Below, one piece after another: positions 1,416 through 64,000 of a DNA stretch of 64,000 nt. Position 1 is the first letter of the stretch; every line of letters begins with the position of its first letter. The position numbers and the translations under genes are program-made. The notes beneath the pieces are model-generated. The model saw only the letters and a program-made list of their open reading frames with translations. It had not been told where the DNA came from and ran no database searches. The DNA is from Candidatus Enterousia sp. (lineage in GTDB: Bacteria; Pseudomonadota; Alphaproteobacteria; Rs-D84): positions 127,243 to 191,242 of the forward strand of contig JAZQTD010000030.1 of assembly GCA_045630455.1 (NCBI GenBank), given 5' to 3'.

Positions 1416-3509
1416 ATGTCAAACGAGAGAGAGTCTTATTCAGTCTTGAATGCTAGCGATTATAACATCGCAGGGAATCTGTTGCGAGTGTTTAGCGATT
1501 CAGATGGTAGTGTTGTATTCGTACTTGATTTGATGGTTAATGAAACTAAGCCGAATGTTTTATTGATAATTAATCCAGATGATGATCGTAAGTGGGATGA
1601 TATTCTGGAAAATGATTATGGGATTGATTTAGAAACTATACGACCAAAAAAGGACAATAAATATCAAAAACTGGATATTGAATATAGTGGGTTGACCGTC
1701 TATCAAGATTTAATTAATGCGTACGTTGCAGGGGAAGATACAGCGGATAAATTGGCTTTGTTGAATGCATTTCGCAAAATAGCTGTTCGTCGTGCTGCAT
1801 CAGAACGTCTGGTTGTAGCTGAAACAGTCTCAGATAATGCGCGTGAAACAATTGATAGAGCGAACGATTCTATTGCCGAATTAAACAATCGTGTGCGTCA
1901 GTTGCGCGCTAAATTAACGGATTTGCGTAAAAATATTGGCAAAGAACCAACAAAACAATCTGCAGCCAAGATTTTGCGTACTGAATCCCAGATTGATGCA
2001 GTAAACGAAAAAATACGTCGCGCAAAAAAGCGTTTGGAAAATGCTCAAAAGCGTTTAGTTGTTGCAACCGAAGATGCAGAAAATGCGCGTGATATATTGA
2101 CCAAGATTGGGGAAAATATGGAATTACCTGCGGTAATTCAGGATATGCCACTTGTAACAATGCCAGATAATGAATTGGCAATCGTTCAAGATGCATCTGT
2201 GCCAATGGTGTATCCCAAAGAATCAGATTTAAATTTAACAATAACAAATGAAGCAAAGGCAGAATATATGGCTGACGAAGAAGTAAAACCCTTGTTTGAT
2301 ACAGACCCGGAAATTCTGGATGAAGAAATCGCGTTCAAGCCGATTGATTTCAGTGCGCCAGTGGTTGCATCTGATATGACACCAGTTCCTGTGGCAGAAC
2401 CTCAGTTGTCAGATGTGTACGAAGAAACACCTGTGGTGGCGCCGATATCGTTTACACCGCCGGTTGTCGAAGAGACGTACCAAGAAACAGATGTCCTGCC
2501 AAGTCAGGTTAAATCTGGCACAACGCCGATGCTGGATTCTATCACGTCTGTGGAAACACCAATCGGGATGGATGTTGTCGAACAGCAACAGACGGAGTTT
2601 ATTCCACAGCCGGTTGTGCCATCGTATGCGCCAGTTTTGGAGTCAAACCCAGAACCAGGTATAGTACAAGCATCGACTGATTCTGGATTTAGACCTGTGT
2701 CCCCATTGACGGGTGTTGCGCCAGTTGCGGTGGCTGATGCCCCAAAGCGCAAACAAAGTGTAGTTTATTACATAATGCTGGTTGCGTTGATTGTGATGTC
2801 TATATTTGTGCTATGGTTCTATCAGAAGACGACTGGTGGAAATGCAGTGCCAAATATTGGTGATGCCGTTATGCCAGAAGCGCTTGTGTCTGCAGAACCC
2901 GAAGAAGTCGCAGAACCAGAACCTGTTGTAGAAGAGGTTCTTGTGACAGAAATCGAAGAACCAGAACCTGTTGTAGAAGAGCCCGTGGTGGTTGAGCCTG
3001 TTGTACAGCCAGAGCCAGAACCTGAGCCAATGCCAGAACCCGTTGTGATAGAGGCTGAACCTGTGGTGGTCGAACCAACGGAAATTGTTGTTCCTGTGAC
3101 TGCGCCGGTGATAAATACTGTGCCGACCGTCGTCCCAGAACCAGAAGTTGTACAAGTAGTCGAGACCGAAGAAGAAATCTTGGCAAAAAAGCCTGCGTAT
3201 GGCGTTTCCCAGAAAGAAGCGATGTTTGTGGCGGATGACAAATTTGAAACAGACAGATTGGCGGCTGATACGAAGGTCGATATGTATGATACTCCGATTG
3301 TTCGTGTTCAAGATACGACACCAGTGATACAATATCAAGAGCCAGAAATTATCGAAGAATTTATAGGAGAAGATGTCCCAGCCTGTGAAGGTGGCGCATC
3401 ACCTGATCGATTTGGCTGCTGTCCGGGGGAATCATATACCCAGATTGATAATGGTGGATTTGTGTGCTGCCCAGATGCGGGTGGCGATTGTTTCCCGCCG
3501 TTGTTCTAA
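1416..3509 (+). CDS. Hypothetical bitopic membrane protein: N-terminal coiled-coil, one TM helix, a Pro/Glu/Val-rich repeat linker, and a C-terminal Cys-rich domain.
   Basis: 697-aa ORF. Coiled-coil-like region around aa 130-230. TM helix VVYYIMLVALIVMSIFVLWFY. Repeats of the form EPEPVVEE. C-terminus CEGGASPDRFGCCPGESYTQIDNGGFVCCPDAGGDCFPPLF. Tandem 42-bp DNA repeats around 2914-2984. Confidence 0.6.
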   Translation: MSNERESYSVLNASDYNIAGNLLRVFSDSDGSVVFVLDLMVNETKPNVLLIINPDDDRKWDDILENDYGIDLETIRPKKDNKYQKLDIEYSGLTVYQDLINAYVAGEDTADKLALLNAFRKIAVRRAASERLVVAETVSDNARETIDRANDSIAELNNRVRQLRAKLTDLRKNIGKEPTKQSAAKILRTESQIDAVNEKIRRAKKRLENAQKRLVVATEDAENARDILTKIGENMELPAVIQDMPLVTMPDNELAIVQDASVPMVYPKESDLNLTITNEAKAEYMADEEVKPLFDTDPEILDEEIAFKPIDFSAPVVASDMTPVPVAEPQLSDVYEETPVVAPISFTPPVVEETYQETDVLPSQVKSGTTPMLDSITSVETPIGMDVVEQQQTEFIPQPVVPSYAPVLESNPEPGIVQASTDSGFRPVSPLTGVAPVAVADAPKRKQSVVYYIMLVALIVMSIFVLWFYQKTTGGNAVPNIGDAVMPEALVSAEPEEVAEPEPVVEEVLVTEIEEPEPVVEEPVVVEPVVQPEPEPEPMPEPVVIEAEPVVVEPTEIVVPVTAPVINTVPTVVPEPEVVQVVETEEEILAKKPAYGVSQKEAMFVADDKFETDRLAADTKVDMYDTPIVRVQDTTPVIQYQEPEIIEEFIGEDVPACEGGASPDRFGCCPGESYTQIDNGGFVCCPDAGGDCFPPLF

Positions 3510-7251: not shown

Positions 7252-8217
7252 CTATCGGGCGACTGCTCCGGTTAATTTTTCGTGACAGATATAGTCTTTT
7301 AATTTAAAGCCTCCATCCGCTGACCAGTTTAGCATACCGCGCCAATTGTCATCTGGGATTTCAACCGTTGGTAACGGATGTGGCGTGCGCTGTAATTGTT
7401 CGCGCACCTGATCCAGATGATTTGTATAAATATGCGCATCATGTAATTCGCCTTTTAGGATGCCCGGGGTTAGCCCCGTCTCTTTGGCGTACAGCAATAA
7501 TAACAACGCGTAACTGGCAATATTATACGGAATCCCAAGGAACATATCACATGAACGCTGGGTCCAGATAAGGTTTAATTTTCCGTCGCGTGCAATTAAC
7601 TGGTGCATCATATGGCACGGCGGTAATGCCATTTGCGGAAAGTCCACAGGATTCCACGCAGAAACAATAATACGACGGTCATTTGGATTGTTTTTTAATT
7701 TATCAATGGCGTTTGCGACTTGGTCAATACCTGGACGCTCTGGGTTAAAGTTATCTGTTGGGTCTTTTTCAATTCTTGCCTTGTCCCATTGGTATTCGCC
7801 ACCAAAATGTCGCCATTGGAATCCATAGATTGGCCCTAGATCGCATTCAGAATCCGCTACAGAATTACGAACGATTTGTTTTTGTGCGTCTGTCAATGGG
7901 CCACCCTGCTCTAACATTCCGACCTTGATATTATACGCCTGTTCTACCTTGATTGGATTTGCCCATTCGTTCCAGATTTTACATTTTCTGTCCGTTAGCC
8001 ATTTTTTATCAGTTATTCCACGAATAAAAAATTCCAACTCGGTCGCGATATTTTTCAATCCCATTTTTTTAGTGGTGATTAATGGAAAGCCATTTGCCAT
8101 ATCATGTACAAATGTTGCGCCATATCCGATACCAATGTCTGGAATGCCCGTGCGATTTTGACGTACATCTGTACAGTTCTTGTAAATGTCGCCTAATATG
8201 TCTAAGTATGCCTTCAT
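7252..8217 (-). CDS. thyA: Thymidylate synthase ThyA with an internal insertion of about 50 aa.
   Basis: Motifs RTG, GFPL.TTKK, IIVSAWNP and LPPCHMMHQ with the catalytic Cys, plus RSCD and NIASYALL. Start placed at MKAYLDIL, which is preceded by an AAGGAAG Shine-Dalgarno site; the ORF-track start at 8295 is probably too far upstream. Confidence 0.85.
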   Translation of the reverse strand: MKAYLDILGDIYKNCTDVRQNRTGIPDIGIGYGATFVHDMANGFPLITTKKMGLKNIATELEFFIRGITDKKWLTDRKCKIWNEWANPIKVEQAYNIKVGMLEQGGPLTDAQKQIVRNSVADSECDLGPIYGFQWRHFGGEYQWDKARIEKDPTDNFNPERPGIDQVANAIDKLKNNPNDRRIIVSAWNPVDFPQMALPPCHMMHQLIARDGKLNLIWTQRSCDMFLGIPYNIASYALLLLLYAKETGLTPGILKGELHDAHIYTNHLDQVREQLQRTPHPLPTVEIPDDNWRGMLNWSADGGFKLKDYICHEKLTGAVAR

Positions 8218-8235
8218 TATATCTTCCTTTGGTAC

Positions 8236-8263
8236 AAAAAACGCGCCAATTGGCGCGTTTAAT
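8236..8263. terminator. Intrinsic terminator downstream of tig.
   Basis: AACGCGCCAATTGGCGCGTT hairpin plus a T-run. Confidence 0.5.
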
Positions 8264-9571
8264 TTAGCGAACAGATGCTTGTTTGAACAATTCATCTGCT
8301 GGGACTGTTTTTTCTTTGGTCTTGACGTGTGTTAACATTGCATCCAGTGCTTTGCGTTCGAAAATCATACCACGCAACATTGCCAAAGCATTTTGATTCT
8401 TGTTATAGAATTCAAATACCTGTTTTGGGTCTGGATAACGTGCTGCTTCGGCCCAAATTGCTTGTTGCAGGTCTTCGCGTGTGACTTCTACTTTGTTCTG
8501 AGTGCCCCATTCTGCCAAGATTAAGCCCAATTTAACACGACGTTCTGCATCTTTGTGTTCTTGTTTTTCATCCCATTTGTGTTCGCATTTTGCGTCGCCA
8601 CAATGTGAATGCTGGTGATCAAATTCGGATTTTGCCATATTGTATTCTTGTTCGACCAATGTTTCTGGCAAATCTAGTTTGACTTTGTCAGCCAATACGT
8701 CCAGCAATTCGTTGCGCATATCGCGTTTTGCAGCTTCATCATACTGTTCATTGATGATTTTGCGGATGTGTTCACGCAATGCTTCGACAGATTCCTGGCC
8801 AACTTGTTTTGCCAAATCGTCATTTAATTCTGGCAAGATGTGTTTGCGGACTTCGTGTACTTTGACCGCGAAACGTGCATCTTTGCCCGCCAAGTTTTCT
8901 GCATGATAGTTTTCTGGGAATTTAACATTTACATCAAATTCATCGCCAACTTTATGACCGATGATTTGATCTTCGAAGCCTGGGATAAACGAGCCAGATC
9001 CCAAAATCAAATGATGTTTAGATGCTTCGCCACCCTCGAACGCTTCATCACCAATAAAGCCCTTGAAGTCAATAACAGCGGTATCACCATTGGCAGCTTT
9101 GTATTTAGCGTCTTGTTTTTCAGCAGTGCTGCGTGATTTGCGGATGTTTTCCAGCGCAGTTTCGACTTCTTTTTCGTCCAGTTTTGCAACCTTTTTCGTC
9201 ACTGTTATTTTTTCCAAATCAACCGCAGGCAATGTTGGCAGGATATCAAATTCCATTGAATATTCTGCATCTTTGCCGATTGTCCAACCTGCCAAGTCAA
9301 CCTTGGGTGTGCCAGCCAGACGGATCTTTTTATCTGCAACGTATGATTCCAAGTCGCGGTTCATTAATTTATCAATCGCTTCGCCGTATGCAGATGCATT
9401 ATATTTTTGGCGCAGGATGTTTAATGGAACTTTGCCCGTACGGAACCCCGGCATTTTAACCTTTTTGCCGTATTCTAATAAAATTTCATCGGCGACTTTC
9501 TGCAATTCGTCCGCAGAAATCAGACCATTTACGGAATAATGTAAATCTTTGATTTTTTCTTTTTTGAACAT
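8264..9571 (-). CDS. tig: Trigger factor.
   Basis: 435 aa. N-terminal ribosome-binding region containing GFRTGKVP, a central PPIase domain, and a C-terminal arm. Confidence 0.9.
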   Translation of the reverse strand: MFKKEKIKDLHYSVNGLISADELQKVADEILLEYGKKVKMPGFRTGKVPLNILRQKYNASAYGEAIDKLMNRDLESYVADKKIRLAGTPKVDLAGWTIGKDAEYSMEFDILPTLPAVDLEKITVTKKVAKLDEKEVETALENIRKSRSTAEKQDAKYKAANGDTAVIDFKGFIGDEAFEGGEASKHHLILGSGSFIPGFEDQIIGHKVGDEFDVNVKFPENYHAENLAGKDARFAVKVHEVRKHILPELNDDLAKQVGQESVEALREHIRKIINEQYDEAAKRDMRNELLDVLADKVKLDLPETLVEQEYNMAKSEFDHQHSHCGDAKCEHKWDEKQEHKDAERRVKLGLILAEWGTQNKVEVTREDLQQAIWAEAARYPDPKQVFEFYNKNQNALAMLRGMIFERKALDAMLTHVKTKEKTVPADELFKQASVR

Positions 9572-25770: not shown

Positions 25771-25837
25771 GGTGTTGATTCAAATGTCAAAAAAATGTTA
25801 AAATATCTTTAAGAGAGAAGTGAAAGTGAAGAGTCCT

Positions 25838-28162
25838 ATGAATAAAATTTTCCGGTTTTCTGCGCTGATTGCGGCTGTTTTTGCCGCAAATTTGGCAAGT
25901 GCGATTGGTCCACAAAATTCACGTGCGACGACGGCGGGCAATGTCGCGCCGGCGCGTGCGGCGGGTCGTGAGGTACAACGTGTCGGAGAAGGCGCAAATG
26001 CACGTTCTATTGCTGCGCGTTCATCTACGGTTTCTCGTGCAGCAGCAACACCTGGCATCGCTTCGCGTGCAGATGTTGCAACCGCAGCACGAAATGCTCG
26101 TAATGCCAATACTATCTCGCGCAGTGCGGTTGCAGCGCGTAGTGCGCGAGTGGCTGCATCTCCTGTTCGTAGTGCAGTGAATACAAAACGTAGTAATGTG
26201 TCGCGTGCAGCACAGTCACGTGCGACAGCAATATTTGAAGACGTTTCTAAGATTGGTGGTGGTTATGCAAAATGTCGTGAAGCGTATGCGACATGTATGG
26301 ATCAATTTTGTGCCAAGGCAAGTGATACGTATCGCCGTTGTTTTTGCAGTGATCGTTTTACAGGTTTTCGTGAAACTGAGGACGCTCTTGATCAAGCGAA
26401 GATTTTGTTGCAACAATTTGAAGATAATAACTTGAATGCGGTTGATAAAACAGCAGCAGAAGTTAGTGCTATGTATTCTGCCACGGTTGGTGAGGCTGCT
26501 ATTAAAAATGATATCAGTGGTGCGGCATCTTTGTTGGCGGAAATTAGCGATTTGATGTCCGGCAAAAAGAAGGCGTTCAGTTCTTCATCATCTACATCGT
26601 TGGGGGTAATGTCATTGGATTTTTCGTCAGATATTGGTGATATTTGGGGTGGTTCTTCGTCTGTATCGTCGATATTCGGCGGAGGCAGTGGTGTAGACGT
26701 GACCAGTCTGGAAGGAGAAGCTTTGTTTAATCAGGTTCATAAACAGTGTTCAGCACTGGTGTCGGAAAACTGTCAAAGCAACGCGGTCGCGAATATGGCA
26801 AAAAGTGCGTACGGTATTATGATTACTCAAGATTGTAATGCTTATGAAAGAAGTATCGACACCAAGCGTCAACAAGTGCAAAATACAGTGCGTCAGGCAG
26901 AAAAAATTCTGCGAGAGGCACGTTTAGAGGAATATCGTGCTCATAATTCCCAAGATGTAAATGACTGTTTAGATAAGGTTCGTACGGCTATGTTGTCGGA
27001 TACTGCGTGTGGTGCGAATTATAAACGTTGTTTGGACTACACTGGTGCGTATATCAATCAGTCTACAGGAGAACCCATATATTCACAGCGTCTGTTTGAG
27101 TTGACTGATTTGATTTTGCTGGATGGTGCTAGTGGCGGTGGGGATGTTTTGACTAAAAACGAAAAGTTTAATCAGTTCCTTGAATCACGTAAAATGTTTG
27201 TGACGAGTGCTTTGGATTCTTGTCGTGATATTTCTGAATTGGTTTGGACGGAATTTAAGCGAGCAGCATTGATTGAAATCGCCCAGGCGCAAGATGAAAA
27301 AATAGAAAGTGTAAAGTCTTCTTGTTTGGAAGTTGTGCGTGAATGCTATGATACGCAGTCCGATGCATTGAAAAGTTTTGATGATACAACAGCAGATGCA
27401 GCTGGTGCGATGAGTGCGTATGTTGCACGTTCTATGTGTCAAGAGAAAGTCGTTGCCTGTGCATCGTTGTATGGTGAGACGGGTGATTGTAAGTTTGATG
27501 GTAATGGCAAATTATTAGATGGCGGTCGTTGTGGATTGTCCGCGTTGTTAGAATACGTAGATGCGGTTGATACTGTGAGAGCCGCAGAGGGATGTGAAGT
27601 TGCTTTAACAAATTATGTTACGGAAATGTGTACACCGACGACCGATTTTGGTGCATATCCACAGCCTTGTGCTACTTTGAGTCAGAAGGACTTGGAAGAA
27701 CAGATAAAAAAACGCGCATCGTTATATTGTATAGATGGTGCGGGTGTTAAATACGATAAGTATGAAGACGGAGCTCAAAATTTTAACGATACCGTTGTAG
27801 AAGATAAGATAACTTCTTTGATAAATCGTTTGATGTCTGATATTTCAAGTTATTTGAAGACGGAATGTGAGGCTGTGGGTGGTTTATGGTATGTAACACA
27901 ACCCGATGGTACGAATATATTAAGTGTTTTCTATCACAGTATTGCTGGGAAGATCGAAGATTTAAAAACTTACGGTGTTTGTGTGGAACAGACAGTCAAA
28001 CTGGCTTGCGAACGTCAAGATGAGTTAACTGGTAATAATGGATATGCAACATATAACTATGCTTTGGATACGTGTGAGCTTTCCGATGAATGGTATCAAT
28101 TCCAATGCACAGATGTGTTGGGTGGAACGTGGAGTAATGATGTATGTTCATGGGTGTATTAG
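25838..28162 (+). CDS. Secreted protein with an Ala/Arg/Ser low-complexity N-region and a large Cys-rich domain; unknown family.
   Basis: Signal peptide MNKIFRFSALIAAVFAANLASA. ARS-rich region around aa 30-140. More than 30 Cys, including CREAYATCMDQFC...CFC. The motif is shared with the ORF at 39123..40364. Confidence 0.6.
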   Translation: MNKIFRFSALIAAVFAANLASAIGPQNSRATTAGNVAPARAAGREVQRVGEGANARSIAARSSTVSRAAATPGIASRADVATAARNARNANTISRSAVAARSARVAASPVRSAVNTKRSNVSRAAQSRATAIFEDVSKIGGGYAKCREAYATCMDQFCAKASDTYRRCFCSDRFTGFRETEDALDQAKILLQQFEDNNLNAVDKTAAEVSAMYSATVGEAAIKNDISGAASLLAEISDLMSGKKKAFSSSSSTSLGVMSLDFSSDIGDIWGGSSSVSSIFGGGSGVDVTSLEGEALFNQVHKQCSALVSENCQSNAVANMAKSAYGIMITQDCNAYERSIDTKRQQVQNTVRQAEKILREARLEEYRAHNSQDVNDCLDKVRTAMLSDTACGANYKRCLDYTGAYINQSTGEPIYSQRLFELTDLILLDGASGGGDVLTKNEKFNQFLESRKMFVTSALDSCRDISELVWTEFKRAALIEIAQAQDEKIESVKSSCLEVVRECYDTQSDALKSFDDTTADAAGAMSAYVARSMCQEKVVACASLYGETGDCKFDGNGKLLDGGRCGLSALLEYVDAVDTVRAAEGCEVALTNYVTEMCTPTTDFGAYPQPCATLSQKDLEEQIKKRASLYCIDGAGVKYDKYEDGAQNFNDTVVEDKITSLINRLMSDISSYLKTECEAVGGLWYVTQPDGTNILSVFYHSIAGKIEDLKTYGVCVEQTVKLACERQDELTGNNGYATYNYALDTCELSDEWYQFQCTDVLGGTWSNDVCSWVY

Positions 28163-31821: not shown

Positions 31822-34683
31822 ATGAAACGCGTATTGTGTTTTTTGTTTAGTGTTTTTCTTGGCTGGACCGCGTATGCAGCCCAGGCTGTTAATGTTGAAT
31901 ATATTCATGATTTAATACTGCAAAAATGGAATATTTCTGTGCCATATAATTCCGCACTAAATAATATGCAGGCTGTGGCTAACATGAAATATTTATTAAC
32001 ATCAGTTGATGTAGCGAATGCTATGTTAAATGGGGGCGCGATTACAGATTGGGGAAACAGCACATATGCAACAAACCAAGTGGCAGATACCGTTGCCGCT
32101 AACCAGGTGATTGCAAATCTGATTAAATTGCCGGTTGGCGAATATCCGTTTGAAATAAAAACGACCAAGGATACCATATACTTCAGTTTTAGTATGTCGG
32201 CAAAAGGAAGCTTTGTTGTAAACTGGGGGGATGGCAATATAGAAGTAATAACCAACCCAGATACCAGTACTGTTACATATGATCATACGTATAATGTTGC
32301 AAAAAATTATACTATTGGCATAAAGGGAACTGCGACCGCATACAGTAATGGTTCTTCTATACCGGTGATTAGTTTTGATGGAAATGAAAACATTTCGATG
32401 ATATTTGGTTCTGTTGGCCAAGTCTTTCCAACATTAGCAAATGGTACGAATCCAAAATTTTATTACACATTTGCAAATTTGCCCAATATATCTGGTGGAA
32501 TTCCAAGTACATTGTTTAGCGGTATAACGGGTGTACCCGCAAAAAATATGTTTTATGGAACTTTTTATGGTTCTGCTGGATTAACCGGTGGCATTCCCGG
32601 GACATTGTTTTCAGGACTGGATGGCGCGCCAACCGAAGGAATATTTTATCGTACGTTCGAAAAATGTACGGGCTTAAGTGGTCCTATCCCATCCGATTTA
32701 TTCGCTGGGATTCATGGTACACCGGCACGTGATATGTTTCACAGCACGTTTTCTGGGTGCAAGGGACTGACAGCGATACCAGATGGACTGTTTGCCGGTA
32801 TAAATGGCGCGCCCGCACAACGTATGTATAATGCTACTTTTTATGAATGTTCGGGCATAACAAGTAATATCCCAGACAAGCTATTTGGTACATTTAATGG
32901 TGCTCCTCAAGAATTGATGTTTGGTAACACGTTTCATGGGTGTACTAACCTAACGGGGAAAATCCCTGTTGATTTGTTTGCTGGGATAACTGGGGCGCCA
33001 ATACAGCGTATGTTTGAAGGCACGTTCAGTATGTGTTCTGGATTAACGGGGCAAATACCGGCGAATTTATTTTCAAGCATGGGGGGGACGCCAGCCGCCA
33101 GTATGTTTTATAATACATTTACAGGATGTTCTGGGTTGACCGGCACTGTGCCAGCGGGACTGTTTGCAACATTTAGTGGTGCGCCAGCACAGCGTATGTT
33201 TAATAAAACGTTTTATAACTGTAATCAGCTGACAGGAATTGATAGTGGCGTGTTTGGTGAGTTGTCCGGTGATGCTCAAGCTGGAATGTTTGAAGAAATG
33301 TTTAATCGTGCAACCGCTTTGCGTGGTCCTTCTGCTAAGATTGGGAGTAAGTATTTGTATGAAATATGGCCCGATGCGACCAGCGCCCAGGTTGGAAAAA
33401 TGTATTCTGAGGCAACAGGTTTGTCAGATTATGAATATATACCAATTGTATGGGGGGGGCTGGGACAGCAACGACCAGATTATAAACTGTATTTAGATCA
33501 TTATTATCAGCGGGTGGGAAGCAATGGAGATGTCCGTGATTCTGATTATTTGCTAATGATTTCAGCAGCCGGTAAGTACAACATTGATTGGGGAGATGGA
33601 ACAGAAGAAGTTATTGAAAAAAATACAGTTGGAGAGCAATGGTTTGGACATGATTATGCTAATGATGGCGAATATCTTGTTCGTATTGGAGGACGGGCCA
33701 CAGAGTATGCCAGTGATCCTGATTTATCAACTGTAATATTAGGTAGCAGTATAGCGTGCATAGATGAGTGGAATCGTCCGGGTGGAAAATGTCCCCTTGC
33801 ATTAACACATATTGATGGATGTTTAGGGTGCGTTTTCCCAACATTGGAAAATGGCTCGCAACCACGATTTATTGACACATTTGCAGATGCAATGGATTTT
33901 TATAACATACCAGCCGGACTGTTTTCGGATATTAATGGTGCACCCGTGAAAAATATGTTTCAACGAACTTTTTCCTTTACATCTTTGTCAACGGTGCCGG
34001 CGGGTTTATTCGCAGGAATCCAGGGGGCGCCAGCGGAATATATGTTTAGCAGCACTTTTGCTGGTACCTATTTAGAATCAATACCAGAAGGATTGTTTGC
34101 GGGGATTAAAGGACCTCCGGCAAAAGGGATGTTTAAAGGAACGTTTACTGAAGCCGCAATAGAATCAATACCAGAAGGATTGTTTGCAGGAATCAAAGGA
34201 CCTCCGGCCGAGGATATGTTTAATGCTACATTTTCGGCTAACTGGGGACTAGAATCAATCCCCGAAGATTTATTTGCGGGCATTCAAGGTCCACCTGCCG
34301 CAGGTATGTTCGCCGGTACTTTTAGATTTGCACCAATAACATCCCTACCGTCGGGCTTATTCGCCGGGATTCAGGGACCGCCGGCCGAGGATATGTTTAA
34401 TAGTACATTTGCGAATAATTGGGGACTGGAATCAATACCTGAAAACTTATTTGCGGGGATTGATACCACCGCGCCATCTGCACGGTATATGTTTGCAGAA
34501 ACATTTAGGGACTGCTTTAACTTGACTGGACCGTCCGCACGTATTAATGGACGATACCTGTATAATATTTGGCCCGATGGATACGATATGTATTCAGGAT
34601 GCGAAGGGCTGACTGATTATAATTGTATCCCAAGTGCATGGGGCGGTGGTGGCCATAATTGCCTATGGACCGATCCTACATGA
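31822..34683 (+). CDS. Giant secreted modular repeat protein built from two modules, each a PKD-like domain followed by 7-8 novel 29-31-aa repeats (LRR-like) and a conserved C-cap.
   Basis: Signal peptide MKRVLCFLFSVFLGWTAYA. PKD-like segments VNWGDGNIEV...YDHTY and IDWGDGTEEV...GHDY. Repeat consensus LFAGIxGAPAxxMFxxTFxxCxGLTGxIPxx. Caps YLYEIWPD...GLSDYEYIPIVWGG and YLYNIWPD...GLTDYNCIPSAWGG. Confidence 0.7.
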   Translation: MKRVLCFLFSVFLGWTAYAAQAVNVEYIHDLILQKWNISVPYNSALNNMQAVANMKYLLTSVDVANAMLNGGAITDWGNSTYATNQVADTVAANQVIANLIKLPVGEYPFEIKTTKDTIYFSFSMSAKGSFVVNWGDGNIEVITNPDTSTVTYDHTYNVAKNYTIGIKGTATAYSNGSSIPVISFDGNENISMIFGSVGQVFPTLANGTNPKFYYTFANLPNISGGIPSTLFSGITGVPAKNMFYGTFYGSAGLTGGIPGTLFSGLDGAPTEGIFYRTFEKCTGLSGPIPSDLFAGIHGTPARDMFHSTFSGCKGLTAIPDGLFAGINGAPAQRMYNATFYECSGITSNIPDKLFGTFNGAPQELMFGNTFHGCTNLTGKIPVDLFAGITGAPIQRMFEGTFSMCSGLTGQIPANLFSSMGGTPAASMFYNTFTGCSGLTGTVPAGLFATFSGAPAQRMFNKTFYNCNQLTGIDSGVFGELSGDAQAGMFEEMFNRATALRGPSAKIGSKYLYEIWPDATSAQVGKMYSEATGLSDYEYIPIVWGGLGQQRPDYKLYLDHYYQRVGSNGDVRDSDYLLMISAAGKYNIDWGDGTEEVIEKNTVGEQWFGHDYANDGEYLVRIGGRATEYASDPDLSTVILGSSIACIDEWNRPGGKCPLALTHIDGCLGCVFPTLENGSQPRFIDTFADAMDFYNIPAGLFSDINGAPVKNMFQRTFSFTSLSTVPAGLFAGIQGAPAEYMFSSTFAGTYLESIPEGLFAGIKGPPAKGMFKGTFTEAAIESIPEGLFAGIKGPPAEDMFNATFSANWGLESIPEDLFAGIQGPPAAGMFAGTFRFAPITSLPSGLFAGIQGPPAEDMFNSTFANNWGLESIPENLFAGIDTTAPSARYMFAETFRDCFNLTGPSARINGRYLYNIWPDGYDMYSGCEGLTDYNCIPSAWGGGGHNCLWTDPT
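34081..34470 (+). repeat. Tandem 87-bp coding repeats (about 4.5 copies, high DNA identity) inside the repeat-protein gene.
   Basis: ATACCAGAAGGATTGTTTGC(G/A)GG...GGACCTCCGGC... recurs with an 87-bp period at about 34081, 34168, 34255, 34342 and 34429. Confidence 0.6.
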
Positions 34684-35804: not shown

Positions 35805-35896
35805 TGTTTTTTTAAGAAAAAGTGTCTATTGCCTCTTGAAATGCTTTTATGATTAACTATATGGTGGTTAAGCGAAAAATTTAAGGAGTGAATAAA

Positions 35897-52557: not shown

Positions 52558-54483
52558 ATGGAATTCAATCAATTGGTTATGTGGGGCGGCGCAATATTGG
52601 GCGGACTATTGTTTATCACACTAATGGTGCTGTTTTTTGTATCGCGCAAATCACAAAAAGTGATGCAGTCGCTGCTGGACATTATGCTGCAACCAGAGCG
52701 CGCTAAAATTACCGATGCAACACGCGTATTAAGCACAATTCTAAAAGACGAAATCAGCAAGATTGAATCCAGCTTTGTCACAATGCGTAATACACTAAAC
52801 GCACAAATCGCGTCTGCAAAAGAGCTGCAACACATACTAGATGAACAGAATGAAAAATTAATATCACTGGCCGATGAGGCAACCAAAAAAATATCAAATA
52901 TGTCGGGCAGATTAGACAATACTGTACACGGATTAAACGATGTGGTAGAGTCTGAAAAGTGGCACGATGTAGAAATCGCAACTGACAAATTTAGCAATAC
53001 TGTCAATCAGTTATTGAATGAAATTAACAACACAACTGAAGAAACCGCAAACCGCACCGCCCAGATACAATCACAAATTGTTTCATGGGTTGCGACCAGT
53101 GAAAGTTTATCGGAACACTTGGGGGCCGAATTCAATAAAAACACCGAACAGATGAAAAATCTGACTGGCGAATCTGAAACTATGATAGGCAAGATTTCAG
53201 AACTGGCACAGTCAACCGCAGATGGTTTCAGCAACGTTAAAAGTTCTGCAGTTAACTATGAAGAAATAATGATACGCAATGACAGACTGTTGGACGGATA
53301 TCTGGACAAGATGGATACATTTAGCAAGCAGTCCAAGAAACAATTAACTAGCCAGATGAATACACTGACCAATACAGCCAATGTTGTTGGGGGTCAGGTG
53401 CGCCTGGCTGAATCATCAATAGATAAACAAATCAAAAAATTAACCGATGCGGTTGAAAAGCTGATGGCATCCGCTACAGAAACCGAAGGGGCAGTACGTG
53501 GCATATCAGGCGAAATCGCGACACTGACCAAGCATTTTGATGGTGAAATCAAAGAATTTGCAACTGGTGTTGTATCAGAACTGAAAACCGTTTCTGGGGT
53601 TGCTAATATCACACTGGAAAACACACGTGGTGCGGCGAATGCGTTTTCAGACTCGGTCAAAGCAATGGCGACTGGCGTGCGCGAAACACTTATCGAAATG
53701 AATACAGCGCATACACAACTGTCTGGACAGTCTGAAAACCTGATTAAAATGTCAGCCGAGACAACCGCCCAGTTGCAACCGCTGTCAGAACTTATTGAAA
53801 AATATTATGCTGCCCTGCCCGATTTGAGTAAAGACTCGGTCGAGACAAGTGAAAAGCTGGAAAAGATTGTCGCAAGCCTGACAGAAAAAGTTAACCAGAT
53901 GAAGGCGGCCGTCAACGAATCTACGAATGCAGTATCTGAATCCGCTATTAAACTGGAAGATTTGGCCGGCACGTCACGCCAGCAAATGATTGATTTGATG
54001 TCTGATTATGCTAAAGCCGTGAATACAATGCAGACGCTGAACAAGCAAATGATGGTGGCACGCGCAACCGCACCAATGGATGCAATCAAGGCCGCACCTG
54101 CGGAATCTTTTGGCAAAATTAGCTCTGCTGACTTTTTAGCGCAAGCAGAAAAGATGTTTGAAAAGTTGCACGAACAGTCACAAGACCTGACCCGGGCGAC
54201 CGGTGCTGATATACCAGACGTAGTGCTGAATAAATATCATGCAGGCGACAAAACTATATTCTCTAAGTGGCTGGCTAAAATGATGAATGCAGCAGACAAA
54301 AAACAAATCCGCAGTATGATTAAGTCTGATGCAGTTTTCCGTTCCCAGGCAACACAATTCATGCGCAGTTTCGACAAAATTATGAATGGCGCACGCGAAG
54401 CGGATAATTCGGATAAACTGATGACGACACTGCTTAAAACTGATTTGGGACAGATATACACAGCACTTAAAAACAATATGTAA
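52558..54483 (+). CDS. Membrane-anchored, long alpha-helical/coiled-coil protein.
   Basis: N-terminal TM GGAILGGLLFITLMVLFFV, then about 600 aa that are Gln/Glu/Thr/Ala-rich with heptad-like periodicity; no enzymatic motif. Confidence 0.55.
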   Translation: MEFNQLVMWGGAILGGLLFITLMVLFFVSRKSQKVMQSLLDIMLQPERAKITDATRVLSTILKDEISKIESSFVTMRNTLNAQIASAKELQHILDEQNEKLISLADEATKKISNMSGRLDNTVHGLNDVVESEKWHDVEIATDKFSNTVNQLLNEINNTTEETANRTAQIQSQIVSWVATSESLSEHLGAEFNKNTEQMKNLTGESETMIGKISELAQSTADGFSNVKSSAVNYEEIMIRNDRLLDGYLDKMDTFSKQSKKQLTSQMNTLTNTANVVGGQVRLAESSIDKQIKKLTDAVEKLMASATETEGAVRGISGEIATLTKHFDGEIKEFATGVVSELKTVSGVANITLENTRGAANAFSDSVKAMATGVRETLIEMNTAHTQLSGQSENLIKMSAETTAQLQPLSELIEKYYAALPDLSKDSVETSEKLEKIVASLTEKVNQMKAAVNESTNAVSESAIKLEDLAGTSRQQMIDLMSDYAKAVNTMQTLNKQMMVARATAPMDAIKAAPAESFGKISSADFLAQAEKMFEKLHEQSQDLTRATGADIPDVVLNKYHAGDKTIFSKWLAKMMNAADKKQIRSMIKSDAVFRSQATQFMRSFDKIMNGAREADNSDKLMTTLLKTDLGQIYTALKNNM

Positions 54484-60666: not shown

Positions 60667-60699
60667 TTATCCTCTTGAAACTTATTATAATCTAAAAAC

Positions 60700-60728
60700 T
60701 TGCAATTTCCAGTCTAAAAGACTATAAT
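60700..60728 (+). promoter_or_regulatory. Sigma70-type promoter for ssrA.
   Basis: TTGCAA, 17-nt spacer, TATAAT. Confidence 0.5.
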
Positions 60729-60734
60729 CTTAGG

Positions 60735-61075
60735 GTCGTGAAAACGATGATGATTCTGAATCCGTTGTGAAATAGTCATTTTGGACTGGGGGGCGGTACC
60801 CCACAGCTCCACCATTACTTAATATGATTTTCGGTCATATTTGGTTATGGGGCTGACATAGATTCGACAGGTGATGAAAGACAAACTGGGTGAATCCGAC
60901 GTGGTGTCGTTAAAAGCCAACTAAAAACTGAATGGCGATAGAATCGCTGCGAACGACAATGTTCGCCTTGCAATGGCTGCCTAATGTGGCGCTGAATATG
61001 GTTGGCGATTGTTGACCGTATTCGTTTAAGCAATTGCGGTGTCCGCCGGGTACATGGCACCAGAAACCCGGCATT
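60735..61075 (+). ncRNA. ssrA: tmRNA (ssrA), a permuted two-piece gene: the acceptor piece ending in CCA at 60814 comes first, then the coding piece starting GGGGCUGA at 60849.
   Basis: Acceptor 3' strand CAGCUCC-ACCA at 60804-60814 is complementary to the 5' GGGGCUG at 60849. The coding piece has the UUCGAC D-analogue and a tag reading frame GCU GCG AAC GAC AAU GUU CGC CUU GCA AUG GCU GCC UAA, encoding (A)ANDNVRLAMAA. A terminator-like hairpin lies near 61040-61070. Confidence 0.65.
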
Positions 61076-61110: not shown

Positions 61111-61347
61111 ATGTTTGGAAAAGTAAAAAAAGTATTCTTTACCGGCGTATTCGGTGTTTTATACATTTCTTTTGTTGCCCAGTTGGTTTACGTATTGGGT
61201 TGGATGAACGGTATTGAAAATAAATTATTCGGCTTGGCCGCACTGTCTTTGGAATGGTTGGTTTTGATTGCTGCACGCTATTTATCAAAACGTTCCAGCA
61301 ACAGTGCTCAGCACGGTGGATTCGGCGGACACAACCGTCGTCGTTAA
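61111..61347 (+). CDS. Small membrane protein (78 aa).
   Basis: Two hydrophobic helices; weak AAGGA Shine-Dalgarno site; strong terminator immediately downstream. Confidence 0.35.
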   Translation: MFGKVKKVFFTGVFGVLYISFVAQLVYVLGWMNGIENKLFGLAALSLEWLVLIAARYLSKRSSNSAQHGGFGGHNRRR

Positions 61348-61352
61348 TAGAA

Positions 61353-61378
61353 ATCCCCCAGACGGGGGATTTTTTTCG
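61353..61378 (+). terminator. Intrinsic terminator; the third copy of the AATCCCCCAGACGGGGGATTTTTTT element.
   Basis: ATCCCCCAGACGGGGGAT followed by T7. Confidence 0.6.
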
Positions 61379-61438
61379 TTTTCATATGCTTTCATATTTC
61401 TTGAAAAGTTATTAAAATGTATTATATTTAAGTCTGCT

Positions 61439-63196
61439 ATGAAAGAATATATTTTACCTTTTCGGGATTTTGTGGTGCATCCGGGGCTAACTGTACCGGT
61501 GTATATTGATAATAAAACTTCTATTACATGTATTGAATCTGCGGGCAAAACGGGGCAAAAACTGGTCTTGGTGGCACAGCGCACGTGGAACTATCCAAAC
61601 ACCCCAAATGATATTTATAGTGTTGGGACAATTGGCGATATTGTTCAAATCTTGCGTATGCCAGACGGTGCATTGCACGCAATTGTACGCACAACCGATG
61701 CGGTAAAAATTAGTAACATTGTTATCGAAGACGGCATCTTTGTCGGGGATGTAGAACCAATCGCAATCCAAGACGACACAAACCATGAACAAACAATTGC
61801 GCTGCGCGATAAAATCGCAGACAATATGCAGTTCTTGGCGGGGATTAAAAAGTTTAAGCTAGAAAAGTTGCGCAATGTTGCAACAAACTATCCATTGCCT
61901 GCGTTTATTGACTATGTTGTCCAGACGATTGAAATGGATGTAGAGCCGGCGTTGAAAATATTGTCTGCGACATCGTGGCGAGAAAAGTTGATTATTTTAT
62001 TAGAACAGGTGAATCTGGTCGCGGAAACAGCAAAAATAGAAGAGTCTATTAACAAGCGTATTCATCAGCAAATGGAAAAGGGTCGGCGCGAAGCAATCTT
62101 ACAGGAAAAAATGCGTGCGATTCAGCGTGAGATGGGTGACGATGATTTAGAGATGGATACTGAAAACATTCGCAAGCGGATTGAAAAATCAGCCCTGCCC
62201 CGTGATGCAAAAGAAAAGGCAATGAACGAGTGGAAACGCATGAAGTCTATGTCACCAATGTCAAACGAAGGCGGATTGTTAAAGACTTATCTGGATGAAT
62301 TGCTGGCGATGCCGTGGGGCAAATCTGACAAATCACAAATTGATTTGAAGGTGGCACGTGATGTTTTGGATTCTGAACATTCTGGTATGCGTGGGGTCAA
62401 GGAACGTATTCTGGAACATATTGCAGTTATGAAAAAAACCAAATCCAATCAGGGGTCAATTTTGTGCTTTGTTGGCGCGCCGGGGGTTGGCAAGACTTCG
62501 TTGGGCAAATCTATAGCAACAGCGTTGGGTCGTAAATATCAGCGCATATCGCTGGGTGGCGTATCGGATGAGTCTCATTTCCGGGGTCATCGCAAAACAT
62601 ATATTGGCGCACAGACGGGACGTATTATGGATGCGCTGAAACGCTGTAAATCAAACAACCCTGTTATTGTATTGGATGAAATCGATAAGATGGGGCGTGA
62701 TTGGCGTGGAGATCCAGAATCCGCGTTGCTGGAAATCTTGGACCCAGAACAAAACAAGTCCTTCCGTGATCATTATCTGGAAGTTGACTTTGATTTATCC
62801 AATGTCTTGTTTATCGCAACTGCAAACAGTTTGAATATGTCAAGTGCGCTAAAAGACCGTATGGAAATTATCGAAATCCCGGGCTATGCAATCGATGACA
62901 AAGTACAGATTGCACGCGAACACCTAATCAAACGTGCGGCACATGATACGGGCTGGGATATTGAAAATGTTATTTTGGAAGATGATGCGATAAAGCATAT
63001 CATTCAAAACTATACTTCTGAACAGGGTGTACGCCAATTACAGCGTGAAATAACTGCAATTCTGCGGCGTGCATTATTGGAAAACAACTGCGCGGATATC
63101 AAGACAGAATTTACGTGCGACAAAATTGATGAACTGTTGGCGATGCGTAAGATATTAAACAGCAGCAAAAAAATCGGATTTGGGGTACGGGTATGA
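61439..63196 (+). CDS. lon: Lon-like protein with the LON N-terminal domain and AAA+ ATPase but no S16 peptidase domain.
   Basis: N-domain ILPFRDFVVHPGLTVPVYI. Walker A GAPGVGKTS, Walker B VIVLDEIDKM, and sensor/lid through YTSEQGVRQLQREI. The ORF stops at about the AAA/protease boundary. None of the three frames continues, and no GPSAG or catalytic Ser-Lys motif appears downstream. Confidence 0.75.
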   Translation: MKEYILPFRDFVVHPGLTVPVYIDNKTSITCIESAGKTGQKLVLVAQRTWNYPNTPNDIYSVGTIGDIVQILRMPDGALHAIVRTTDAVKISNIVIEDGIFVGDVEPIAIQDDTNHEQTIALRDKIADNMQFLAGIKKFKLEKLRNVATNYPLPAFIDYVVQTIEMDVEPALKILSATSWREKLIILLEQVNLVAETAKIEESINKRIHQQMEKGRREAILQEKMRAIQREMGDDDLEMDTENIRKRIEKSALPRDAKEKAMNEWKRMKSMSPMSNEGGLLKTYLDELLAMPWGKSDKSQIDLKVARDVLDSEHSGMRGVKERILEHIAVMKKTKSNQGSILCFVGAPGVGKTSLGKSIATALGRKYQRISLGGVSDESHFRGHRKTYIGAQTGRIMDALKRCKSNNPVIVLDEIDKMGRDWRGDPESALLEILDPEQNKSFRDHYLEVDFDLSNVLFIATANSLNMSSALKDRMEIIEIPGYAIDDKVQIAREHLIKRAAHDTGWDIENVILEDDAIKHIIQNYTSEQGVRQLQREITAILRRALLENNCADIKTEFTCDKIDELLAMRKILNSSKKIGFGVRV

Positions 63197-63561
63197 AAAC
63201 ACAAACAGTAATGCTTAACGGCAAACCAATCGAAGCCGTCGTGTTTGGCGACGGCCAACAACAGATTGATTTATTTAATGCGGTTGCCGAATATGCGCAG
63301 AATCATAAATTGGAATTCAAAACAGCCCAATTAACACCTATGATAAAAGGCATGCAGAAAACAATGATTGTGGGAAAAGACAATAGGTACGATGTGCGCG
63401 TCACAGAAACAAAAATCCCAGGAATCGAACCACCTTTTCATTGTCCAAGTTATACATCGTTTGTGATTGATAAGGGAACTGGCAAAACATCTATGCATTA
63501 TGGTACGATTTCACATTGTTTTTGGGATTTGCTGCACGAATTAAAGGGAAAACAAAAATGA
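63193..63561 (+). CDS. Hypothetical protein (122 aa), overlapping the lon-like stop (ATGA).
   Basis: No similarity to the Lon peptidase domain; translationally coupled to its neighbours. Confidence 0.4.
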   Translation: MKTQTVMLNGKPIEAVVFGDGQQQIDLFNAVAEYAQNHKLEFKTAQLTPMIKGMQKTMIVGKDNRYDVRVTETKIPGIEPPFHCPSYTSFVIDKGTGKTSMHYGTISHCFWDLLHELKGKQK

Positions 63562-64000
63562 TTCTGATAATCAATACATCGGGGCAAAATTTAGAATTTG
63601 TATTGGATGATAAATACAAGTCTGTTGTGGTGGAAAAGCAATCAGTTGCCCTGCCTGTGGAATGTGAAAATTTTATATCTGAATGTGGCGCAAAATGGTC
63701 AGACTTAACCGCCATCGGTATTATTGTTGGACCGGGCAGTTTTACTGGGATTCGCCTTGGCATCGCGTACGCCAAAGGACTTGCAATGGGGTTAAACATT
63801 CCAGTTGTCGGGATTAGTTTGTTTGACTTGTATCTGGCGGCGACACCAGATGCATTTGTTGCAATTGATTCATATCGTGGGGACTTCTTTGTTGCGGCAA
63901 ATGGATTAGAACCCCAGACAATGAAAATAGAAGAATTAGAGACAAAGCAAATGGCGTGGCCACGGACAGTCGGTCACAAGCCTTTTGATTTGAGGCTGGG
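63558..64000 (+). CDS. tsaB: tRNA threonylcarbamoyladenosine biosynthesis protein TsaB (YeaZ), partial; runs off the right edge.
   Basis: MILIINTSG...LTAIGIIVGPGSFTGIRLGIAYAKGLA is characteristic of TsaB. Not in the ORF track because no stop lies in the window. Confidence 0.7.
   Translation, partial: MILIINTSGQNLEFVLDDKYKSVVVEKQSVALPVECENFISECGAKWSDLTAIGIIVGPGSFTGIRLGIAYAKGLAMGLNIPVVGISLFDLYLAATPDAFVAIDSYRGDFFVAANGLEPQTMKIEELETKQMAWPRTVGHKPFDLRL

Follow-up and report, generated by a model that had tools for sequence, protein, structure and literature searches.

A probable protease-less Lon unfoldase in Candidatus Enterousia, with a conserved IGF-type C-terminal tail where the peptidase domain has been lost

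Lon is the textbook AAA+ protease: one chain carries both motor and peptidase, and the integrity of the hexamer is generally attributed to the peptidase ring. In a stretch of 64,000 nucleotides (nt) from the genome of Candidatus Enterousia sp. (assembly GCA_045630455.1, contig JAZQTD010000030.1, positions 127,243 to 191,242; hereafter ‘the window’), the gene at the lon locus encodes a protein of 585 amino acids (aa) that retains the entire motor and stops where the peptidase domain would begin. It is likely that this gene (lon′, with the product Lon′) encodes a functional, ancient and heat-shock-regulated Lon unfoldase that lacks a protease, and that the 122-aa open reading frame (ORF) directly downstream (orf122, or orfX) is unrelated to the lost domain. 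Literature searches found no description of a natural LonA without its peptidase.

By descent Lon′ is a LonA. The substrate-binding N-terminal domain, the AAA+ core and the lid are all recognized by Pfam (Table 1), and the Walker A motif GAPGVGKTS (G346-S354, including K352 and T353) and the Walker B motif LDEIDK (including D413 and E414) are accompanied by the pore-loop Y388, the sensor-1 N463, the arginine finger R474 and the sensor-2 R532. When Lon′ is aligned with full-length Lons, none of these eight residues (K352, T353, Y388, D413, E414, N463, R474 and R532) varies. An original prediction, which had been made from the sequence of this DNA before any comparison, described the N-terminal and AAA+ domains as intact (Walker A and B, sensor, lid) and placed the stop at the AAA+/peptidase boundary, some 585 aa from the start, and both statements hold; specifically, the endopeptidase La model of NCBIfam (TIGR00763) is matched over its positions 2-563 of 795 only, and the score of 555.2 bits falls below the cut-off of 608.05. 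Lon models are nevertheless the best NCBIfam matches of the protein, with a weak match to ClpA (E = 6.8e-10, 37.8 bits) and none to ClpX in the same scan.

The structural comparison agrees with the family assignment. The AlphaFold2 (AF2) model of Lon′ has a mean predicted local distance difference test (pLDDT) score of 84.7, its top Foldseek matches are full-length LonA structures (7p6u, 7fd4), and it superimposes on the AAA+ domain of Escherichia coli Lon (6n2i) with a template modelling score of 0.92. Compared with the LonA family (TIGR00763; E. coli Lon and the Thermus/Meiothermus LonA, 7p6u, 7fd4, 6n2i), Lon′ has a homologous N domain, long helix, AAA+ part and lid, is 37-41% identical to typical members and has all of the ATPase and pore-loop residues in common with them. 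What differs is the C-terminus, where LonA has the S16 Ser-Lys peptidase domain and Lon′ has instead a predicted disordered tail of about 15 residues with an invariant KKIGFG. The S16 domain is the defining catalytic part of the LonA family and forms the ring that stabilizes the hexamer. Lon′ should therefore not be called endopeptidase La, as the defining catalytic feature is absent and the curated equivalog threshold is missed; at NCBI its relatives are labelled ‘AAA family ATPase’.

For the comparative part of this work, one genome per GTDB species was scanned, which gave about 261 lon′ matches, and the counts of loci given throughout refer to the best 80 of these ~261, while a set of 89 related loci served for the neighbours of lon′ and for the search for ClpP, ClpX and HslV. 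Pfam detects no Lon_C domain (PF05362) in the Lon′ protein. The S16 peptidase (P) domain of the closest full-length relative (P0136), when used as a tblastn query against the six frames of the window, returned chance matches only (best E = 0.67), so that the lon′ frame has no continuation and the window no separate S16 gene; this agrees with the earlier claim that no frame carries Lon past the stop. Pfam scans of all large ORFs of the window recovered no further Lon, and in the 89 related loci no Lon_C-like sequence adjoins lon′, the next gene being either tsaB or orfX.

The full-length relative also clarifies where lon′ comes from. P0136 is a protein of 769 aa that is 48.5% identical to Lon′ and has an intact PKDGPSAG serine motif and catalytic-lysine region, and on its contig the gene order is lon-tsaB-rimI, with lon and tsaB overlapping by 4 nt. 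The same order of lon or lon′, tsaB and rimI is kept in loci L001-L007 and L009, and tsaB is the immediate neighbour in the case of the truncated P0133. Because P0136 shows this synteny, lon′ is the positional orthologue of the true lon, and the peptidase-coding part has therefore been cleanly removed from the ancestral gene, leaving no remnant. The ancestor of the Rs-D84/Enterousia lineage would thus have lost the fused S16 domain by a clean deletion.

Positional orthology bears directly on the idea that lon′ is an accessory paralogue, that is, that a canonical Lon is encoded elsewhere and that Lon′ serves as a regulatory or dominant-negative subunit, either co-assembling with it or competing with it for substrates. 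Some bacteria do have two Lon homologues, as in Borrelia (PMC2777506), but lon′ shares both its locus and its promoter motif with the related full-length lon and is thus an orthologue rather than an extra copy. In addition, the usual tig-clpP-clpX-lon position is unoccupied in the window, and the small genomes of Enterousia (a member of the uncultured order Rs-D84, with ~0.75-1.0 Mb and ~800-1200 genes; PMC12306168) would make a second Lon improbable. An accessory role beside a canonical Lon is accordingly considered unlikely.

The truncated form is fixed and under constraint throughout the group. Protein relatives were gathered both as clusters at 90% identity, from a large protein collection, and through an exhaustive search of 50%-identity clusters. 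More than 120 clusters at 90% identity correspond to lon′; nearly all are exactly 585 aa long, they are 76-100% identical to the query and they originate from many independent projects. At the level of loci, the ORF measures 584-587 aa in 79 of the 80 species, and in the exception (L050, 6001-7599) one stop interrupts the frame at codon 533, after which it is intact up to KKIGFGVRL and its stop codon. The interruption is due to a sequencing error or to a nonsense mutation of very recent date. All 80 loci belong to Candidatus Enterousia or to metagenome-assembled genomes (MAGs) named ‘Alphaproteobacteria bacterium’, recovered from the guts of ruminants, humans, mice and chickens, and include a complete circular Enterousia chromosome (L026; OZ007020.1, 958,618 bp). 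Pairwise ratios of nonsynonymous to synonymous substitution rates (dN/dS) lie between 0.03 and 0.11, with dS above 1 and hence saturated, and in an alignment of 81 Enterousia sequences the columns of the ATPase core (residues 340-480) are 95-100% conserved. Furthermore, two deeper truncated clusters at about 50% identity (P0132 with 593 aa and P0133 with 580 aa) stop at the same point of the alignment. As a separate observation, one MAG contig of 24 kb (JAIDWS010000009.1) carries two copies of the lon′ locus (L032 and L034) whose protein tails are identical, probably an assembly duplication.

A protein that stops exactly at a domain boundary and fails to reach the endopeptidase La threshold of NCBIfam could be the product of a recent truncation, a pseudogene, or an assembly or sequencing artefact of a normal lon. 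However, length and stop agree across 79 of the 80 species-level assemblies, each independent, and across hundreds of contigs from separate metagenome projects; together with the low dN/dS, the lack of any peptidase remnant and the shared stop in relatives at ~50% identity, this leaves such an explanation with practically no chance of being right. The original prediction had weighed a recent truncation or pseudogenisation of lon against a protease-less Lon-like unfoldase. The former has to be abandoned, and no close full-length orthologue that differs merely by an indel was found either, the full-length gene at the same locus being the distant P0136; the latter is supported, on sequence evidence, by the intact ATPase and pore motifs, by purifying selection and by fixation across the clade.

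The same prediction had it that the peptidase domain was replaced by the downstream 122-aa ORF, while noting that this ORF overlaps lon′ by ATGA and has no GPSAG or other catalytic motifs. The second observation is borne out and the first is not. A reading in which orf122 replaces the peptidase functionally, by being a novel peptidase or a subunit that Lon′ cannot do without, could draw on the ATGA overlap with the lon′ stop, on a strand that is always that of lon′, and on a confidently predicted fold (AF2 model with a pLDDT of 88). Against this, orf122 has no match in Pfam or NCBIfam, its model has no significant match among PDB folds, proteases included (best E = 0.037), and hhalign gives a probability of 0.2% for similarity to the Lon P domain. 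In a collection of 5.8 billion proteins, orf122 has 11 homologues. In 36 of the 80 loci tsaB follows lon′ directly (at a distance of -4 to +59 nt) and the orf122 family is absent, as it is at the deeper truncated P0133 and full-length P0136 loci; in the other 44 the two genes are separated by an insert of 100 nt or more, which in most cases measures 300-385 nt and holds one plus-strand ORF of 93-130 aa. Most of these inserted ORFs form one fast-evolving family (linked by BLASTP and hidden Markov models), whose identity to orf122 drops to 24-36% at loci whose Lon′ retains 75-81% identity, and since its 39 distinct members share a single near-invariant column, a glycine, the family has no conserved catalytic residues. 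In L036 (7761-7909) lon′ and tsaB are separated by a remnant of 144 nt, in which an ORF of 40 aa matches the N-terminus of orf122 at 45% identity: an accessory gene in the course of being lost. Therefore, orf122 was rejected as a diverged peptidase and is a dispensable, rapidly evolving accessory gene; that it substitutes for the peptidase is highly improbable, whereas the overlap with the lon′ stop would allow that it may act as an adaptor or regulator.

Expression is a further feature in which lon′ appears to have remained a lon gene. A sigma32-like -35 element (CTTGAAA, 61400-61406) had been suspected upstream of the gene, and it proves to be part of the longer motif CTTGAA-N15-ATTATAT at 61400-61427, which matches the RpoH1 consensus of Sinorhizobium, CTTGAA-N15-16-CCTATAT (PMC4843759). 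The pattern CTTGAAN{13,17}YTATAT has two matches in the window against 0.08 expected, one at lon′ and the other (CTTGAA-N15-ACTATAT, 35835-35862, plus strand) directly upstream of dnaK. In nearly all Enterousia loci the motif is found ~37-38 nt upstream of the lon′ ATG, and it also precedes P0133, P0132 and the full-length P0136 (L007, L008 and L009 carry it). A simple promoter scan reads the same site as a sigma-70-like TTGAAA-16-TATATT, and a sigma-70 reading of these hexamers is possible. Owing to the conserved RpoH-type motif shared with dnaK, lon′ appears to have been kept in the heat-shock regulon, and would thus be transcribed, like dnaK, from an RpoH-type promoter. This placement fits a role of Lon′ in protein quality control, and the predicted heat-shock promoter is, together with the positional orthology to full-length lon, what lon′ shares with LonA genes beyond the protein itself.

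The C-terminal tail deserves a more detailed description. Alignment with full-length Lons identifies it as a remnant of the interdomain linker plus the first residues of the peptidase strand beta1, and in Enterousia the protein ends in the pattern K-[KR]-I-G-F-G-[VIL]-R-x. Among the 81 sequences compared, the successive positions of the motif are occupied by K in 79, K or R in 81, I in 80, G in 80, F in 80 and G in 76. The deeper truncated proteins end similarly, P0132 in ...GRKIGFRTTSVRI (with RKIGF) and P0133 in ...GKKIGFSERF. As every synonymous codon is in use within the motif, selection acts on the tail peptide and not on overlapping translation signals; a nucleotide-level effect such as a downstream ribosome-binding site was rejected on the same grounds and because the downstream spacing varies, the motif being unaffected by whether the next gene is an overlapping tsaB, a tsaB at a distance of 10-18 nt or orfX. 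The I-G of the tail aligns with the [VI]-G at the start of peptidase strand beta1. The residue that follows is V, L, I, Q or similar in the 76 full-length Lons examined, and in none of them is it Phe.

That such a stump of beta1 is so strongly conserved could suggest a split Lon, in which a separate peptidase gene elsewhere in the genome supplies the P domain and the tail re-attaches to it by complementing strand beta1, giving a two-piece protease. Fragmented lon genes with an adjacent Lon_C ORF are indeed known elsewhere (P0233 at locus L175; L090 and L091), and, like lon′, they have an ORF of ~577 aa that ends after the lid. These loci differ from those of lon′ in that the Lon_C ORF follows immediately, the surroundings are the canonical tig-clpP-clpX-lon cluster and there is no IGF tail, whereas the lon′ loci retain no trace of a P domain. 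Given the adjoining Lon_C ORF in a canonical cluster, these examples point to pseudogenisation or assembly error and look like frameshifted canonical genes. For Enterousia, the split reading is opposed by the lack of Lon_C-like sequence in the window and next to lon′ in the related loci; by the length and sequence of the stump, with only ~7 beta1 residues left and these diverged at positions that pack within the P domain (the Phe seen in 0 of 76 full-length Lons); and by the finding that the nearest full-length P domain, as a query in what was a weak search, yielded no close stand-alone relative. Two proteins from that search (P0294 and P0324) were rejected as a split or second Lon, since they are frameshifted canonical tig-clpP-clpX-lon loci of unrelated organisms. 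A two-piece Lon is thus very unlikely here. At L175 (4001-6312; ENA ERZ26051663 contig_3), from a very AT-rich organism, lon is split into a 577-aa ORF with the N and AAA+ parts and a 156-aa Lon_C ORF, and this is a genuine case of a recent truncation or split that contrasts with Enterousia.

A different comparison is offered by the Clp proteases. Clp ATPases dock into hydrophobic pockets (H-pockets) of ClpP by means of a flexible element that contains the motif (L/I/V)-G-(F/L), which ClpX has as IGF, ClpA as IGL and other such ATPases as VGF or LGF (PMC8745299, PMC9035409). I579-G580-F581 of Lon′ fits this pattern on an element that is likewise predicted to be flexible; the stretch in E. coli ClpX is ...GSGIGFGATVK (from PDB sequences), and the end of Lon′ is ...SKKIGFGVRV. 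More generally, ClpX, ClpA and ClpC resemble Lon′ in being AAA+ unfoldases without a peptidase of their own and in having basic residues followed by (L/I/V)-G-(F/L) within a flexible part of the chain, located on the side where the ring has its exit (PMC8745299, PMC9035409). They differ in ancestry, as Lon′ is of the Lon clade, lacks the zinc finger of ClpX and falls outside the ClpX and HCLR Clp families, and in the position of the motif, which is on an internal loop in the Clp proteins and at the extreme C-terminus in Lon′, where ClpP binding is putative. Another hexameric AAA+ protein, HslU (ClpY), activates its peptidase HslV by inserting its C-terminal tail, with an aromatic residue being critical (PMC4106860). 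The only likeness to the tail of Lon′ is an aromatic residue near the C-terminus, and there is no sequence similarity.

A survey of short Lons among the 150 closest representatives brought to light a fourth clean truncation, which belongs to a different Lon subfamily. This protein (P0204; 615 aa, L093 2905-4752, Logan SRR28895798) is cut off at the same boundary, ends in ...GHVGFSVRAQ and is followed after 146 nt by convergent genes. Full-length Lons are its nearest relatives (P0281 at 47% identity), and in JGI metagenomes, where the best match is 48% identical and 79 of 80 matches are full length, it is a singleton. The sequence of P0204 thus suggests an independent origin of a VGF/IGF-type tail. 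Other candidates in the survey did not qualify as clean truncations: P0216 is a contig-end fragment, P0233 is the split gene with Lon_C adjacent, and several further short Lons end inside the P domain.

Taken together, Lon′ keeps the substrate-binding N domain, the long helices and an AAA+ translocase that should be fully competent, and it would most likely be a hexameric, ATP-driven unfoldase/translocase in protein quality control; hexamer formation and the threading of substrates are inferred. The tail emerges at the exit of the translocation channel, at the former attachment site of the peptidase ring, and would be a short linear docking motif. We favour a role of this tail as a tether between the Lon′ ring and a compartmental peptidase encoded by another gene. 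The most plausible partner is ClpP, because the tail matches the (L/I/V)-G-(F/L) motif through which Clp ATPases dock onto ClpP, and HslV would be the second candidate. These proposals differ in strength: that the tail docks any peptidase encoded in trans is possible but has somewhat less than an even chance, while docking of the IGF tail to ClpP itself is a tentative and rather doubtful proposal. The fuller scenario, in which the Lon′ motor turned the stump of its peptidase into an IGF docking tail and now delivers substrates to ClpP (or HslV), is speculative to a similar degree. Such a Lon′ would be a natural hybrid of the two main bacterial AAA+ protease systems, on which P0204 may have converged.

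Several points weigh against this picture, and they concern the ring, the tail and the putative partner. Firstly, a Lon′ hexamer that forms without the peptidase ring is an assumption. Secondly, the I-G of the motif is, by the alignment, inherited from the ancestral beta1, so that only the Phe and the preceding basic residues are derived; moreover, the docking motif of Clp ATPases is on an internal loop and that of Lon′ is C-terminal, and the seemingly convergent P0204 is known from a single 7-kb contig of one sequencing run. Thirdly, tblastn searches with approximate E. coli queries detected no ClpP, ClpX or HslV in the window or in the 89 loci, a result that has no bearing on the rest of the genome, and neither a full-length Lon nor a free-standing S16 domain occurs in the window or the fetched loci. 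The protein search with the P domain of P0136 returned generic Lon fragments only (53-60% identity), although it was a weak search that missed P0136 itself. Finally, tig is followed in the window (7255-9571, minus strand) by the thymidylate synthase gene thyA and not by the usual clpP-clpX(-lon), so that ClpP could have been relocated or lost; in this genome the canonical cluster of AAA+ protease genes has undergone rearrangement or reduction. If the tethering reading does not apply, Lon′ would act as a stand-alone chaperone or unfoldase, with a tail that serves the assembly or stabilization of the ring, in place of the lost peptidase ring, or the binding of an adaptor. In this respect, the chaperone-like, anti-aggregation action of LONP1 requires its ATPase and not its protease activity (PMC8368198), which suggests that an N domain and AAA+ parts alone can serve a physiological function as proposed here for Lon′. 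LONP1 and the catalytically dead Lons are, however, full-length proteins or laboratory point mutants, whereas Lon′ is a natural deletion fixed across a clade.

Table 1. Coordinates of lon′, its parts and the adjoining features within the window
Feature	Position	Strand	Basis or remark
Two-piece (permuted) alphaproteobacterial tmRNA (ssrA)	60696..61075	+	Rfam RF01849, 146 bits
78-aa hydrophobic small ORF and intrinsic terminator	61111..61374 (terminator 61349-61374)	+	ORF list, terminator scan
RpoH/sigma-32-type promoter, CTTGAA-N15-ATTATAT(T)	61400..61428	+	~10 nt upstream of the lon′ ATG
lon′ coding sequence	61439..63196	+	ATG start, TGA stop at 63194-63196; 585-aa LonA-derived AAA+ ATPase
Lon N-terminal substrate-binding domain (LON_substr_bdg)	61451..62011 (aa 5-191)	+	PF02190, E = 5.5e-25
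AAA+ core	62462..62872 (aa 342-478)	+	PF00004, E = 7e-22
Lon lid (small AAA+ subdomain)	62951..63079 (aa 505-547)	+	PF22667, E = 5.3e-13
Predicted disordered C-terminal tail	63149..63193 (aa 571-585)	+	pLDDT <50 (AF2)
K577-K578-I579-G580-F581-G582 motif	63167..63184	+	conserved in 81 sequences
orf122 (orfX), 122 aa	63193..63561	+	shares ATGA with the end of lon′ and, at its own stop, ATGA with the start of tsaB
tsaB (incomplete at the window edge)	63558..64000	+	TIGR03725, E = 1.7e-24

Upstream of lon′, the transfer-messenger RNA (tmRNA) gene ssrA sits between obg and lon′, an arrangement that is kept in relatives. ARAGORN reads its tag peptide as AANDNVRLAMAA, with the classical ...AMAA end, and, going by ssrA recognition, this end is weakly compatible with a retained reader of the ClpX type. 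The small ORF and its strong terminator separate ssrA from the lon′ promoter, and relatives have a 76-aa gene at the same place. A few kb downstream of lon′, two of the related loci (L001 15759-21758 and L004 14259-20681) encode giant proteins of 2100-2400 aa with Flg_new repeats, which may be surface or adhesion proteins. Elsewhere in the window, four large ORFs have no Pfam match at E <= 1e-5 (1416-3509 with 697 aa, 25820-28162 with 780 aa, 31822-34683 with 953 aa and 52558-54483 with 641 aa), and these orphan proteins stand out given a genome of only ~0.9 Mb. Members of Enterousia are described as lacking the tricarboxylic acid cycle and respiratory chains, in a genome paper in which proteases go unmentioned (PMC12306168).

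A clade of more than 250 species keeps only the motor of Lon, under strong selection and apparent heat-shock control, which means that the N domain and the AAA+ part of Lon have a selectable function of their own and that Lon′ offers a natural system in which the chaperone or unfoldase role of Lon can be separated from proteolysis. If the IGF tail does dock ClpP or another peptidase, then (i) the choice of partner by AAA+ proteins would be evolvable through a few residues, (ii) Lon′ would be a new class of ClpP activator, and (iii) the finding would bear on the annotation of such proteins, now labelled only ‘AAA family ATPase’, and on how protein quality control is reorganized in very small genomes.

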